DNA from: Marine Group I thaumarchaeote | Lineage (GTDB): Archaea; Thermoproteota; Nitrososphaeria; Nitrososphaerales; Nitrosopumilaceae | Assembly (NCBI GenBank): GCA_044358425.1 | Contig: CP054849.1 | Location: forward strand, 700,053-721,632 | Length of the DNA stretch: 21,580 nucleotides | Direction: 5' to 3' | In this document: positions 7,161-11,844 of the stretch, one piece after another | Numbering within the stretch: the first letter of the stretch is position 1 | Layout of the letters: every line of letters starts with the position of its first letter | Position numbers and translations under genes: made by a program | Notes under the pieces: model-generated | Seen by the model: only the letters and a program-made list of their open reading frames with translations | Told to the model about the DNA's origin: nothing | Databases searched by the model: none

Positions 7161-7502
7161 TTACTTTGATTTCTTTTTACTCTTTTGAATTAGAATTTTT
7201 TTAATTCTAGATATTGTTGGATAACTATAGCCTCTGCGGCGGTAATTTGAAATCATCATTTTCCAATTTTTTAATCTCCATTGAGCTTGTTCAGTAGTAA
7301 CCGAATGCACTTCTTTTTGAACAATACTTTTTCTTCCAACTTTTAAAGTTCCAGAATCTTTAGCATACCATCTACTTTTTGCAAATTTAAGGCCAGTAAT
7401 TATTTCATTAACAGGCATTTCATTGAAATATTCTTTTAGTTTTTTTAATTCAAGATCTGTAGGTTTTTTTGAAATTGGGAGTTCAACACTAAATTTTGCC
7501 AT
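7161..7502 (-). CDS. hypothetical basic 113-aa protein
   Basis: ATG ORF convergent with the CdvB-like gene. The Arg/Lys-rich C-terminus (RRRGYSYPTISRIKKILIQKSKKKSK) could be nucleic-acid binding. No family recognised. Confidence 0.45.
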   Translation of the reverse strand: MAKFSVELPISKKPTDLELKKLKEYFNEMPVNEIITGLKFAKSRWYAKDSGTLKVGRKSIVQKEVHSVTTEQAQWRLKNWKMMISNYRRRGYSYPTISRIKKILIQKSKKKSK

Positions 7503-7787
7503 AAAATTCCTAAAACATCATAACTTAAGAATTTTGAAAAATTAGAATAATTAATTAGATTCAGGAATAAAATTATCAATTATCAACTAAAGTTTCTAAA
7601 GATAATCCAAAATAGCCACTATTTGATCCATTTAGGGATTTCATTAATTCAATTTTTAATGATCTCAATTCTTTGTTATTTTTCATAATTAGTGTACAAA
7701 TAAACTAGAAATAATATTGTCTTTTTAATTTGGGTAAACCAATAGCTCGTAGTCAATTAACTAATTTATGAAATTATTAAAAAATCC

Positions 7788-7795
7788 TTTTATGA
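7788..7795 (+). promoter_or_regulatory. TATA-like box for the helicase/HD pair
   Basis: ttttatga is centred near 7791.5, about 28 bp upstream of ATG 7820. Confidence 0.35.
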
Positions 7796-7819: not shown

Positions 7820-10483
7820 ATGAAGTTTTGCCCAACATGCGATACAAAACTTTCAAAAAATTTGAAAGATGTTGCAGCTCCAGGAATATGTCCAAAATGC
7901 AATCCTGAAAAAATTATTCCAAGAAAACCAACATATGGAGTCAATTATTCAGGAAGAACAAAACAATGTTCCAAGGGCTGTGGTTCAGAAATTTACTGGG
8001 ATGATGAATTCAAATCAGATAGTGGTAAATTCATTCCTCTTGATGCAAGAACAGATGAGCCACATAGTTGTAATGGTCCAGAAATTTCAGCAGGTTATTT
8101 TCCAGATGAAATAAAAAATATTGGAAAGACAGTAACTCCTAAAAAAATTAAAACAGAATTAAAAATTTCAATACCTGAAAATATTTTATTTGACGTAAAT
8201 AAAATACCAAAATTAGAAGTTGATAACGACATAATTATTCATGAATTAGTAGAAGGTCACAGGAATCAAACATTAGCAATTATTCATTATGAGAAATTAC
8301 TTTCATTAGAGCCAGAAAAATTACCAGTAGAAAATCTCAAAGATGTTTTATCAACAAAAATTATCGAAGGATTAAAAAAATATGGTTTTTCAGGAGTTCT
8401 ACCATTTCAAAATGAATCAATTCGGTCAATTTTAAATGGGGATAATTCAATTATTTCTGCACCTACAGGTTCAGGAAAAACAGAGGCATTCATAATTCCA
8501 ATTTTACAAAAAATTTTAGAAAATCCAATTGAAGGTGTTTTTGTATTATTGGTGTATCCATTAAATGCATTAATCGATGATCAAGTTTCAAAAATTTCAG
8601 ATTTAATAGATAAATGTGAATTAAATGACATAATTTCTACATATTCAATTCATGGTGGGCAAAATTCACAATACAAAGATAAAATAATTTCAGAATCATA
8701 TAAGAAATCAATTATTCTAGCAACAAACTTTGATTTCATTAATTATCATTTAATTTTACAAGATAAAAAATGGAATCAATTATTTAAAAATGCAAAAATA
8801 ATTGTAATGGATGAAGCACATTCATACACTAGTTTTCACGGCTCTAATGTTTACCATGTATTAAAAAGAATGAAAAACTATATGAATAAATTTCAAATCA
8901 TAGGAGCATCTGCAACGTTAGATAACCCTAAAGAATTTTTTTCAAACATGTACGATTTACCTGAAAAATCTTTCACATATATCAAAAGTGAGTCAAAAAG
9001 AAAACAAAATATGCATCGATTTTTCATCATGCCAAGAAAATATGGTCAAAGAACAACTATGGAAATGATTACAACAATATGCAATAAAAAAAAATCTAAA
9101 CAATTAGTATTCAGTAATAGTCATAATGATGCAGAATTTTTAGCATCAAACGTAGAATCTATGAATGAAAAAATAAGAATACAAATTCATCGTGGCGGTT
9201 TAGAACAAAAAGATAGAAAGATGTATGAATCACAAATGAAAGAAGGGGAATTAGATATTTTATCATGTACGCCTACATTAGAGCTGGGAATTGACATTGG
9301 TAATGTAGACGTAGTAATTTCAGCATTCAAAAATGAGTACGATTCATTTATTCAAAGAATTGGAAGAGCAGGAAGAAAAGGACAAAAATCATATGCAATC
9401 TGTGTTTTTGATCCAGAGGATGCAGCATGTCATTATTTTGCACGAAATATCCCTGCATATCTGAATCAAAATCATCATGTTGAAATTAACAAAGAGAATT
9501 CCATAATTTCAGAAAAACATACTGCGTCAATCGGAATGGAAAAACATGCAGCATTAGAATCAGATAAATCCAAATTTTTTGATTTTGCAAATAGTATTAA
9601 TCTAAGAGGAGCATCGGGAGAAATTACAATTTTTCACAACTCAAAAAAAATTGGAACCAGAGACACACCTGTGGGATATTATCAACTTCATCAAAATGGA
9701 ATATATCATTTCAATAAAGAAAATTATCAGGTAAAATCAATAAATAAAACTGAAAACGGTGCAAATGCATTTTTAGAAACATCTAATGAAATTCACAAAA
9801 GGACTATTCCTATTGTGAAGACATCATTAATGCAAGTGACAGAAAAAGACTCAATTAAAAAAGAAATTAATTCACATGTAAAAAAATTATCATTACGTTA
9901 TGGATTGATAAAAATAGATAGAACAATTACAGGATATCTAAAAGGAAATTATAACGATACGTCAGATAAGTTTGAAACGTTTGATGGAAAAACAATATTA
10001 AATTGGAATAATTTTAGTTGGAGTTCAAAACATTATTGTACGAGTATTACTGTACCAACTGAATTCACATCTAAAATAAATGGAGATGTAAAAAATTCAT
10101 TTACGTCAGATTCAAAAATACATACAATTACTCATGTTTTAGTTAATGCAAGTAAAATATTGACAAAATCAGAATCAAATGATATTGACGCATATTATGA
10201 AAATGGAATTATTCATTTGTTTGACAACACATCAGACGGGTATAATGGTTGTAGTAAAATAATTTATGAAAATTTTGAAGAAGTTATGAAAACTTGTTTT
10301 GATTTGATTAGTGAATGTAATTGTAAAGAAGAATCAAATGCGGATCAAGAATCAGCATCAGAGGAATGGGGAGGGTGTCCAAAATGTACATTTACAACAA
10401 ATTATTGTCAAACAAAAAACAAAAATTTATCAAAGAAATCAGCATTAGATTTTTTTTCAATTATGTGTAGTGCAAGTAAATGA
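7820..10483 (+). CDS. DEAH-box superfamily-2 helicase with C-terminal DUF1998/MrfA-type Zn-binding domain (COG1205, YprA/MrfA/Hrq1/DrmA-like) and an N-terminal double zinc module
   Basis: 887 aa. Motif I is APTGSGKT (8459-8482), motif II is MDEAH (DEAH at 8810-8821), motif III is SAT, motif V is TPTLELGIDIG and motif VI is QRIGRAGRKG (from 9353). The C-terminal part carries HTITHVL and a Cys cluster (C826..C863, nt 10295-10408). The N-terminus has CPTC..CPKC and CSKGC..HSC. Confidence 0.85.
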   Translation: MKFCPTCDTKLSKNLKDVAAPGICPKCNPEKIIPRKPTYGVNYSGRTKQCSKGCGSEIYWDDEFKSDSGKFIPLDARTDEPHSCNGPEISAGYFPDEIKNIGKTVTPKKIKTELKISIPENILFDVNKIPKLEVDNDIIIHELVEGHRNQTLAIIHYEKLLSLEPEKLPVENLKDVLSTKIIEGLKKYGFSGVLPFQNESIRSILNGDNSIISAPTGSGKTEAFIIPILQKILENPIEGVFVLLVYPLNALIDDQVSKISDLIDKCELNDIISTYSIHGGQNSQYKDKIISESYKKSIILATNFDFINYHLILQDKKWNQLFKNAKIIVMDEAHSYTSFHGSNVYHVLKRMKNYMNKFQIIGASATLDNPKEFFSNMYDLPEKSFTYIKSESKRKQNMHRFFIMPRKYGQRTTMEMITTICNKKKSKQLVFSNSHNDAEFLASNVESMNEKIRIQIHRGGLEQKDRKMYESQMKEGELDILSCTPTLELGIDIGNVDVVISAFKNEYDSFIQRIGRAGRKGQKSYAICVFDPEDAACHYFARNIPAYLNQNHHVEINKENSIISEKHTASIGMEKHAALESDKSKFFDFANSINLRGASGEITIFHNSKKIGTRDTPVGYYQLHQNGIYHFNKENYQVKSINKTENGANAFLETSNEIHKRTIPIVKTSLMQVTEKDSIKKEINSHVKKLSLRYGLIKIDRTITGYLKGNYNDTSDKFETFDGKTILNWNNFSWSSKHYCTSITVPTEFTSKINGDVKNSFTSDSKIHTITHVLVNASKILTKSESNDIDAYYENGIIHLFDNTSDGYNGCSKIIYENFEEVMKTCFDLISECNCKEESNADQESASEEWGGCPKCTFTTNYCQTKNKNLSKKSALDFFSIMCSASK

Positions 10484-11109
10484 ATTCACTAACAAATGCA
10501 GAATTATTTGCAAAGACAAAACATGGAGGAAAACTGAATGTAATTGGTGTCTCATACTCAAATCACTTAGAAAATGTTGTGAATAGGCTCAAAAGCTTAG
10601 GGGTAATTGATGAGGAAGTACTTTGTGCAGGATGGTTACAAGGTATTTTGGAACACACTGACACAAGTTTTGATGAATTGTTTGAAAAATTTGGTAGAAG
10701 AGTTTCAACATTAATTTTATCATTAACAGAAACCAAACTAGTAATTGATACAAATGATAATTCAACATTATCGTTAACAAAAAAAAGAACTATTTCAAAA
10801 AAACAAAGACAGAAAGAATATGGAATGAAGATAAAAGAGTCAGAGTTAGATGCAAAATTAATTAAATTATGTGACATATCAGCAAACTTAAGTGAATTAA
10901 AAAATCAAGTGATTTCAAAATCTAAAAAAAGACGTATTTTAAGGGAATTAAGATATTATCTTTTAATAATTGAAAAAGATCTTGCAGGACATACAAAATA
11001 TCCACAAATAATTACGTTATTGGAAACAATTAATCAAAATTTGAAAATTCAAAATAACAACATAGTTAAATTAAAAAAGAAATACAACACAGGCACAAAA
11101 AAAATCTAA
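10480..11109 (+). CDS. Mesh1/SpoT-type HD-fold protein with a degenerate metal site (HD replaced by QG)
   Basis: The first ~140 of 209 aa align by eye to the RelA/SpoT/Mesh1 hydrolase domain: KH.G, SYSNHL, GVIDEEVLCAGWLQGILEHTDTSFDELFEKFGRRV, KLIKLCDISANL. The canonical LHD..ED reads LQG..EH (Q54-G55 at 10639-10644). The start overlaps the helicase stop in ATGA. Confidence 0.65.
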   Translation: MNSLTNAELFAKTKHGGKLNVIGVSYSNHLENVVNRLKSLGVIDEEVLCAGWLQGILEHTDTSFDELFEKFGRRVSTLILSLTETKLVIDTNDNSTLSLTKKRTISKKQRQKEYGMKIKESELDAKLIKLCDISANLSELKNQVISKSKKRRILRELRYYLLIIEKDLAGHTKYPQIITLLETINQNLKIQNNNIVKLKKKYNTGTKKI

Positions 11110-11427
11110 AAAGAACAAATTGCAGATCAGAATAAATTAGAAATAAATACTATGGAAATATCGAATAATTATGAATTTAAAGAAAAGCCTTGCAAAGTTT
11201 TGCATAATGAAAAAAGTTCGTGACAAAGCAAACGAAACTGACGACGAATAAAAAAAATTTAAATTTTTAACATCCTAATGGAATATTTGAGTTTTTACAC
11301 AATGTGTTGTATATGGCAAAACCAAAAATTATGGATGCAAAAGTTGCTAACGGTACTAAAAGGAAAAAATTAGTTTTACGTCCCATAAAAATCAAAAATA
11401 AACACGACTATAAAGTTGTGACAGTTT

Positions 11428-11844
11428 CTAATCAACTGTAATTATTAAAACTCCTTTTGTTTTTGGATTTTGTAACTTAGTAACCATTTCTCTAGGCACC
11501 AAATCGGAGGCTTTATCACATTTTACAGACAATGTTCTAGGACATGTAAAATCACTTTTTCGTAAAACAATATCCTCTTGATGAGTCAATGTTAAATTTG
11601 GATGTCCTTTTCCTTTTATAGAGAATTCATCATCCCCAACTTTAATCAAAAATTTAACATTAGTTTCAGGATTTTTTAATTTATTTTTTAATTCTTCAGG
11701 CAAATCATAACATGAAGAGTTAGCACTAACACCTACAATACAATCACCCCGTAGGGTAAGATGAGAATCTTTTGTAATCTCTATGGTATTTTTATGATTT
11801 GATCTAATGTTTTCATGGCCAAAAAATTCAATTTCATACTTCAC
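11428..11844 (-). CDS. DUF371-family archaeal protein
   Basis: 138 aa. FFGHENIRSNHKNTIEITKDSHLTLRGDCIVGV and the C-terminal RTLSVKCDKA pattern match my recollection of DUF371. Uses a GTG start at 11844. Confidence 0.55.
   Translation of the reverse strand: MKYEIEFFGHENIRSNHKNTIEITKDSHLTLRGDCIVGVSANSSCYDLPEELKNKLKNPETNVKFLIKVGDDEFSIKGKGHPNLTLTHQEDIVLRKSDFTCPRTLSVKCDKASDLVPREMVTKLQNPKTKGVLIITVD

Follow-up and report, generated by a model that had tools for sequence, protein, structure and literature searches.

The Locus and Its Two Proteins

Two adjacent genes of a Marine Group I thaumarchaeote (family Nitrosopumilaceae) are the subject of this analysis, one encoding a superfamily 2 (SF2) helicase and the other a small protein with the fold of the Mesh1-type small alarmone hydrolases (SAHs). 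They lie in a stretch of 21,580 nucleotides (assembly GCA_044358425.1, contig CP054849.1, positions 700,053 to 721,632), referred to throughout as the window, a low-GC (24–35%) part of a marine Nitrosopumilus genome whose proteins are 96–100% identical to those of the metagenome-assembled genome (MAG) MED-G94 (L064; L numbers denote the loci used for comparison). The helicase open reading frame (ORF) of 887 aa occupies positions 7820–10483 and the small-protein ORF of 209 aa positions 10480–11109, both on the plus strand, and the stop codon of the former overlaps the start codon of the latter in an ATGA at 10480–10483. An earlier examination of the letters alone, hereafter the sequence-only reading, had described these ORFs and their overlap correctly and went on to propose that they form an insulated and dedicated helicase-effector or helicase-sensor module. 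Compared across the Nitrosopumilaceae, the arrangement has the look of a recent operon fusion and not of a new helicase-effector system: two genes, each conserved separately in these ammonia-oxidising archaea, would have been joined in one operon.

The helicase can be divided into an N-terminal extension (residues 1 to ~160), a RecA1/RecA2 core (~177–530) and a C-terminal MZB/DUF1998 domain (771–857), and its assignment to the MrfA/YprA family of SF2 DEAH helicases draws on Pfam, on a profile match to the solved structure 6znp and on invariant motifs. Pfam recognises DEAD at residues 195–372 (E 2e-32), Helicase_C at 417–521 (E 7e-19) and MZB/DUF1998 (PF09369) at 31 bits against a cutoff of 24.2, the C-terminal fragment alone scoring 32.5 bits. 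The full DEAH motif set and the DUF1998 cysteine region of the sequence-only reading are thereby borne out, and in 25 orthologues the motifs APTGSGKT, DEAH (331–334), SAT, QRIGRAGR and HTITH are invariant, as are the four MZB cysteines C833, C835, C853 and C856. The closest solved structure, 6znp, is that of B. subtilis YprA/MrfA (E 2e-38 with the single sequence, 8e-43 with a profile). Like MrfA/YprA, the protein has a DEAH RecA1/RecA2 core and a four-Cys MZB domain above the Pfam gathering threshold. The profile alignment to 6znp is colinear over the core and continues in weak colinear segments at the OB (587–653 to 487–557) and at the MZB (794–833 to 685–723); a WH-OB-CON canopy like that of MrfA may accordingly lie between RecA2 and MZB. 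Its nearest kin are the SF2 repair helicases of the MrfA/YprA (DUF1998/MZB) type, namely MrfA (YprA) of B. subtilis, SftH of M. smegmatis and Hrq1 of yeast, and MrfA homologues are known in archaea (PMC7797055). By homology to MrfA and SftH (PMC7797055, PMC3424565), it should be an ATP-driven 3′-to-5′ DNA translocase and helicase.

Unlike MrfA, the helicase resides in an archaeal host, has no MrfB, carries an N-terminal region of ~160 residues with two zinc motifs and, in one clade, appears to be co-transcribed with an HD_4 protein. The N-terminal extension is common to all Nitrosopumilus orthologues, whether or not the small-protein gene is linked to them, and its two zinc-type motifs, CxxC...CxxC (C4/C7/C24/C27) and CxxxC...HxC (C50/C54/H82/C84; around a conserved 'EIYWD...GKFIP.D' core), are invariant in the 25 orthologues (window 7820–8300). 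Searched against Pfam at E values up to 10, the extension gave no significant match and returned insignificant hints of a zinc ribbon (DZR, E 0.017). This double-zinc module probably serves the recognition of nucleic acid or of a partner.

A 2025 census of the YprA family recognises a repair branch, consisting of 'YprA only' helicases without conserved genomic context and of MrfAB pairs, and separate defence branches with methyltransferase, nuclease and second-helicase partners; a SpoT, RelA or phosphohydrolase partner is not mentioned (PMC12458937). In none of the genomic contexts examined was an MrfB/YprB 3′–5′ exonuclease found, either adjacent or fused, and no methyltransferase or nuclease neighbour of the helicase was found. 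This lack of neighbours, together with its closeness to MrfA/YprA, matches the helicase to the 'YprA only' repair branch (PMC12458937), with which it also shares the want of a conserved genomic partner across the orthogroup. Judged from its context and best hits, the helicase is most likely of the repair-type 'YprA-only' kind, and for this protein the housekeeping repair function that the sequence-only reading had kept as a fallback is the better reading.

The small protein belongs to HD_4 (PF13328; 34.8 bits against a cutoff of 27.2), and of the solved structures MESH1 and Drosophila Mesh1 match its sequence best. An AlphaFold2 model based on 35 family members reached a pLDDT of 87 and a pTM of 0.84, and the top Protein Data Bank matches found for it with Foldseek were Drosophila and human Mesh1, the P. 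aeruginosa SAH (PaSAH) and C. glutamicum RelH (entries 3nqw, 9chy, 5vxa, 6yvc and 7qod; E 4e-7 to 2e-5; target-normalised TM 0.78–0.81). The protein is apparently the single-copy Nitrosopumilaceae homologue of the Mesh1-type SAHs. Like Mesh1 (HDDC3), PaSAH and RelH, it is a single-domain protein of the ~180–210-aa class with an all-helical fold, and it retains the first His and the last Asp of their metal-binding tetrad.

Linkage of the Helicase and HD Genes

Relatives of the small protein were sought in a single genome from each GTDB species with an alignment of 10 sequences, and of the 261 found the best 80 were kept; these loci come from Nitrosopumilus, Nitrosarchaeum, Nitrosotalea, Nitrosotenuis and other Nitrosopumilaceae, and the presence of the helicase at each was scored by tblastn of the window proteins. 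In 11 of the 80 (L004–L013 and L064) the HD gene has the helicase directly upstream; all are within one marine Nitrosopumilus clade, with HD proteins of at least 72% identity, and share one conserved gene order in the flanks that runs from thioredoxin to ribosomal protein L3. No co-oriented helicase was detected by tblastn upstream of the HD gene in the other 69 loci, which span Nitrosopumilus, Nitrosarchaeum, Nitrosotalea and Nitrosotenuis. The sequence-only reading had named a lack of linkage in other genomes as refuting a dedicated module, and in most loci the small-protein family is indeed unlinked to the DUF1998 helicase.

Elsewhere the HD gene occupies several contexts, each conserved within a genus according to neighbour clustering. 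Read by eye, its neighbours in these contexts (HisRS-like, eIF6-like, aldo-keto reductase, ferredoxins, ThiL, GlmM) seem to be housekeeping genes unrelated to one another and give no functional lead. The complete 1.70-Mb genome of Nitrosopumilus sp. S4 has the helicase at ~1.02 Mb and the HD gene at ~1.55 Mb, ~530 kb apart, and the helicase orthologue of N. adriaticus (69% identity) sits in an unrelated context. The S4 HD gene (L087, 1.544–1.557 Mb) is flanked on one side by a DndB-like gene and two N6/N4 methyltransferases and on the other by a metallo-beta-lactamase-fold gene followed by a type I restriction-modification system (HsdR, HsdS, HsdM), so that its neighbourhood in that genome is a defence island.

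The slot that the pair occupies in the window can also hold either gene alone. In L085, a 2.19-Mb genome, the helicase stands in exactly this slot and there is no HD gene, nor does tblastn at E<=10 find an HD remnant downstream of the helicase. In L014 (Ca. N. limneticus) the slot holds the HD gene, complete with an insertion described below, and the helicase is absent; the HD gene (10001–10581) matches there as two segments in different frames, which reflects either a frameshift, and possibly a pseudogene, or an error of MAG assembly. The occurrence of the slot in three states (both genes, HD alone, helicase alone) indicates that helicase and HD gene are distributed independently. The dedicated module of the sequence-only reading is thus not supported, given the small number of linked loci, the distance between the genes in S4 and a slot that either gene can fill by itself.

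Within the linked clade, by contrast with the family at large, the arrangement is stable. The ATGA overlap is kept in 12 of 12 linked genomes and the synteny of flanking genes is complete, extra genes occurring only between a 113-aa gene and s36, a short ORF treated below. The most abundant marine population (represented by protein P0041, which is indexed in 197 assembly-collection blocks) has the same arrangement, and all four places examined are syntenic. Island-like variability had been offered as something to check, and the pair proved to occupy one and the same place in all species of the clade; it is a fixed, core-like operon there and not a strain-variable island.

Upstream of the helicase lies a block resembling a BRE/TATA promoter (ATTATTAAAAAATCCTTTTATGA; 7773–7795, plus strand), which is near-invariant in the 12 linked genomes even though their synonymous divergence reaches ~1. 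It contains, at 7788–7795, the TATA-like octamer TTTTATGA, which accords with the claim that the pair has a TATA-like box of its own; the octamer ends 24 nt before the helicase ATG, implying a leaderless mRNA or one with a very short leader. The core of the block, ATCCTTTTATGAC, also precedes the helicase of L085. Its conservation suggests that block 7773–7795 would function as a promoter. The helicases of L081, L084 and L086, which lie outside the window's slot, have another conserved upstream block (TTCATATCTTCATTAATGG) despite their differing flanking genes, so that the promoter region seems to travel with the helicase. The geometry at 10480–10483 would have the two genes co-transcribed and probably translationally coupled as well. 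Since 4-nt overlaps are found at 7 of the 27 junctions in the window, the one between helicase and HD gene is an ordinary operon junction in this genome.

Loss of the Metal Site in the Small Protein

Where MESH1 reads 'LLHDTVEDTD', the aligned segment of the window protein reads 'WLQGILEHTD'. H29 and D132 of the metal tetrad are kept, the HD dyad has become Q54-G55 and the ED dyad E58-H59, and the broken metal site in a Mesh1/SpoT-type protein that the sequence-only reading had recognised is therefore upheld by family assignment, predicted fold and dyads alike. Given the known roles of the lost residues in Rel, SpoT and Mesh1, the protein is almost certainly unable to bind Mn2+ or to hydrolyse pyrophosphate esters as Mesh1 does.

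Unlike in Mesh1 and the SAHs, the dyads read QG and EH in the window and the first is QD in its close relatives, the wider family reading HD, and an insertion of 14 residues is specific to the clade. A motif census of 84 rows (83 loci and the window) found an intact HD dyad in 71 of them, the 80 scan loci contributing 68, and the second position of the ED dyad varies throughout the family in Nitrosopumilaceae (D, N, H, Y, V, A, S, E or T). Among the linked species, L008, L010, L011 and L013 read HD...ED and L012 reads HD...EH, L004, L005, L007, L009 and L064 read QD, and L006 reads KD; QG...EH is confined to the window among the 84 rows. In the 120 closest metagenome clusters the His is always replaced by Q or K, and only the cluster identical to the window has Gly in place of the Asp. 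Five linked species (L008, L010–L013) thus keep HD, four of them ED as well, and the degenerate site is accordingly not a design feature of the pairing. Metal ligands have also been lost in unlinked loci: L015 shows a His-to-Gln change, and in a Nitrosotalea-type clade H29 is replaced by Tyr and the ED dyad reads DN in six of eight loci (L069, L070, L074, L076, L079, L082), the remaining two (L072, L075) keeping H29 with the dyad ND. Degeneration in the Nitrosotalea-type clade and in L015 is independent of that in the linked clade.

The insertion (KFVIDTNDNSTLSL, at about residues 87–100) is present in the linked clade and in L014, is absent from the other family members inspected and forms the low-confidence part of the AlphaFold2 model. 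A neighbour-joining tree of the HD proteins places the linked clade and L014 in a monophyletic group on a long branch. Pairwise dN/dS is 0.10–0.29 for the HD gene, as compared with 0.08–0.14 for the helicase and 0.015–0.11 for proteasome alpha, and in most comparisons the HD value is the highest of the neighbourhood. These ratios clearly point to purifying selection on the HD gene. Every linked genome and each of the 120 closest metagenome clusters encodes the protein at full length, and 28 alignment columns do not vary among the 35 family members. As purifying selection persists, the small protein is best called a pseudo-hydrolase with a structural or ligand-binding role, and none of the present findings demands that the helicase have a part in that role.

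Small ORFs in the Flanking Gaps

Counted between ORFs of at least 60 aa, the gaps on either side of the pair measure 317 and 318 nt and are the longest in the window, the next longest being 300 nt. In these lengths the sequence-only reading was right; it had also taken the gaps to be noncoding, and here it was mistaken, since three conserved small ORFs lie inside them. With no ORF-free stretch above ~133 nt in either gap, the description of the pair as insulated was overstated.

The ORF nearest the helicase, s36 (36–37 aa, MKNNKELRSLKIELMKSLNGSNSGYFGLSLETLVDN; 7576–7686, minus strand), is intact wherever a linked locus covers the region. Oriented away from the helicase, it always lies 110–135 nt upstream of it in the linked clade and stays beside it where extra genes separate s36 from the 113-aa gene; its peptide ends in YFGLSLETLV. 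Variable sites number 13, 7 and 25 at the three codon positions, and gene callers report the ORF in relatives. It is absent from L014, L085, L084 and L086. These observations suggest that s36 may be a third member of the helicase/HD unit. Where s36 would stand in L085, just 5′ of the helicase (L085:7100–7950), there are overlapping ORFs in several frames with a composition unlike that of the AT-rich surroundings, and one frame resembles a fragment of an IS5-type transposase; the segment could be an insertion sequence (IS) remnant or an assembly chimera.

In the 3′ gap, s26 (26 aa, MNLKKSLAKFCIMKKVRDKANETDDE; 11171–11251, plus strand) encodes a conserved peptide that is identical in the window, in 5 of the 80 scan loci and in the metagenomic locus L088, with 5, 2 and 19 variable sites by codon position. 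The 39-aa s39 (11267–11386, minus strand), downstream of the DUF371 gene, is intact in every locus that covers the region and has 14, 8 and 36 variable sites by codon position; judged by eye, its hydrophobic stretch looks like a single transmembrane helix. In all three small ORFs the variation thus falls chiefly on third codon positions. Neither s26 nor s39 is called in the gene predictions of the relatives examined. Both are present in L014, which has the HD gene only, and in L085, which has the helicase only, and they therefore belong to the slot and not to the pair. Identity in the 3′ gap is 76% per column across nine species; Rfam reports no RNA family at gathering score anywhere in the window, and the conservation of this gap is thus explained by the small ORFs and not by a known RNA. 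Another candidate, a 42-aa ORF at 11313–11441 (plus strand), was rejected as a shadow of s39 with neither start nor stop conserved.

Origin of the Pair and Competing Interpretations

The account that we favour, and hold to be somewhat better than an even bet, is a lineage-specific bicistronic operon that brings together a repair-type YprA-only helicase and a Nitrosopumilaceae Mesh1-like protein that is now a pseudo-hydrolase. In the ancestor of one marine Nitrosopumilus clade, the HD gene would have come to lie immediately behind the helicase, where it is now presumably served by the helicase's conserved promoter through the 4-nt ATGA junction. After this relocation, the small protein would have evolved fast and gained its 14-residue insertion; the metal-binding His would then have been lost in a subclade, giving way to Gln or Lys, and last of all the adjacent Asp would have become Gly in the lineage of the window. 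This order (relocation and insertion, then loss of His, then loss of Asp) is suggested by the mixture of HD, QD and KD in the linked clade and by a Gly that is unique to the window.

Several points weigh against a mere operon fusion. The ATGA junction, the shared promoter and s36 have been kept across near-saturated synonymous divergence, and a genuine functional unit would look the same; the small protein's burst of change coincides with its move to a place beside the helicase; and a second, independent adjacency exists in L081, where a 64%-identical helicase lies tail-to-tail with a 37%-identical HD gene. In addition, the survey covers only the best 80 of 261 relatives, many of them on incomplete MAG contigs, the comparison on the helicase side is confined to Nitrosopumilus genomes, and the AlphaFold2 model of the helicase (25 orthologues; pLDDT 57, pTM 0.36) is too poor for a fold search. 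The most substantial competitor, which we consider unlikely yet worth real weight, is accordingly one in which the Mesh1-like protein was recruited and neofunctionalised as a non-catalytic, possibly nucleotide-sensing, helicase subunit in a clade-specific two-component machine. It would account for the ATGA coupling and the common promoter that all 12 linked genomes, and abundant populations too, have kept, for the coincidence of long branch and insertion with relocation, for metal ligands that have gone while purifying selection persists, for an s36 that travels with the pair and for the adjacency in L081. E. coli RelA offers an analogy, for it retains under selection a RelA/SpoT-type HD domain that has lost its catalytic residues and with them its hydrolase activity; unlike the small protein, this pseudo-hydrolase is a domain of a multidomain, ribosome-associated synthetase. 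What the idea of a recruited subunit does not explain is that loss of catalysis is not tied to linkage, five linked species keeping HD and four of these also ED, and that metal ligands have been lost without linkage (L015 and six of the eight Nitrosotalea-type loci). Nor does it sit well with the relocated, insertion-bearing HD gene of L014 that lacks a helicase, with the L085 helicase that lacks an HD gene, or with 4-nt overlaps that are generic in the genome. An extended version, with s36 as a third component and the pseudoenzyme serving as regulatory partner of a DUF1998 helicase, a position usually taken by a nuclease, is in our estimation also unlikely. It is improbable, in turn, that the small protein is simply a dispensable hydrolase drifting towards pseudogenisation and kept by read-through from the helicase promoter. 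Stepwise loss of catalytic residues ending in a window-unique Gly, the dN/dS that is highest against its neighbours in most comparisons, the frameshifted copy of L014 and the missing gene in the L085 slot would all suit such decay, but a dN/dS of 0.10–0.29 lies far under 1, and full-length ORFs throughout the linked genomes and the 120 closest metagenome clusters, 28 invariant columns among 35 family members and a confidently predicted fold speak against it.

The architecture invites comparison with Cas3 and with the defence systems built on YprA-type helicases (DISARM, Druantia, Dpd, ARMADA), in which an SF2 helicase is encoded with an HD-superfamily or other effector, and one could imagine an anti-virus module or mobile island that would be a new system of the YprA family, with the HD protein as its effector. 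The helicase core does score against the PADLOC models SngC, BrxH, DruE and DrmA, the slot upstream of s36 takes insertions and the GC content is slightly below that of the downstream ribosomal-protein operon. PADLOC, however, matches only the generic SF2 core of the helicase and nothing in the small protein. On both sides the pair is bordered by core genes (CdvB/Snf7, DUF371, proteasome alpha and the ribosomal-protein operon), and it is fixed at one position in every species of the clade. The defence YprA systems are characterised by methyltransferase, PLD or PD-(D/E)xK nuclease and BrxHII partners and by inserts in the OB region, and no DrmB/DrmC, PglX-like methyltransferase, BrxHII-like helicase or PLD/PD-(D/E)xK nuclease of the kinds found in DISARM, Druantia, Dpd, ARMADA, BRIGADE or TALON is present at the locus; the helicase likewise has no fused nuclease, which according to the census is typical of the ARMADA, TALON and Druantia helicases (PMC12458937). 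Phage genomes hold no close relatives, only distant generic HD_4 and SF2 matches, and no relatives among archaeal viruses. The likeness to Cas3 drawn by the sequence-only reading is superficial: the HD domain of Cas3 is a nuclease of a different HD subfamily, the small protein has the RelA/SpoT-type HD_4 fold, the window contains neither cas genes nor a CRISPR array, and the helicase's matches to Cas3 fall below cutoffs and involve the core only. A toxin–antitoxin pair of the toxSAS-SAH type finds no counterpart either, as no synthetase-domain gene lies beside the HD gene in the window, in L001–L003 or in L087–L091 (the contexts with family annotations). Taken together, a defence role for the pair is highly improbable.

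If the favoured account of a lineage-specific operon is true, the locus illustrates how an operon arises in a streamlined archaeal genome and how a catalytic centre is lost stepwise, from HD through QD to QG, while under selection. It also draws attention to a number of poorly described elements, among them a Nitrosopumilaceae-wide Mesh1-like family, a YprA-type helicase with an N-terminal double-zinc module and three conserved small proteins. The 2011 census of RelA/SpoT homologues listed very few archaeal SAHs and none in Thaumarchaeota, and the HD_4 family of Nitrosopumilaceae is not among its subgroups (PMC3153485). Because no stringent response mediated by (p)ppGpp has been seen in archaea (PMC12542715), the small protein resembles metazoan Mesh1 in occurring where such a response has not been seen, and the family poses the same puzzle. 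The findings would bear on a long-standing open question only if the small protein regulates the helicase.

Genomic Surroundings

Along the window, biotin-synthesis genes are followed by genes for DsbD-like and thioredoxin-like proteins, a Snf7/CdvB homologue and the 113-aa gene (minus strand); the helicase and HD_4 pair comes next, and after it the DUF371 gene (minus strand), proteasome alpha, an RNA methyltransferase and the ribosomal-protein operon. The 113-aa protein (7161–7502, minus strand), which is encoded beside the CdvB/Snf7 homologue, shows 85–97% identity within the clade and matches no Pfam family significantly. The interval between this gene and s36 is an insertion hot spot, with differing cargo in L006, L008, L011, L012, L089 and L090. 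This cargo includes a 453-aa protein in L008 that by eye appears membrane-spanning, a 404-aa protein without a Pfam hit in L089 and L090, and small ORFs; at the same hot spot, L009 and L014 carry a Cys-rich ORF of 62 aa (CSCKCWSKGNKPC).

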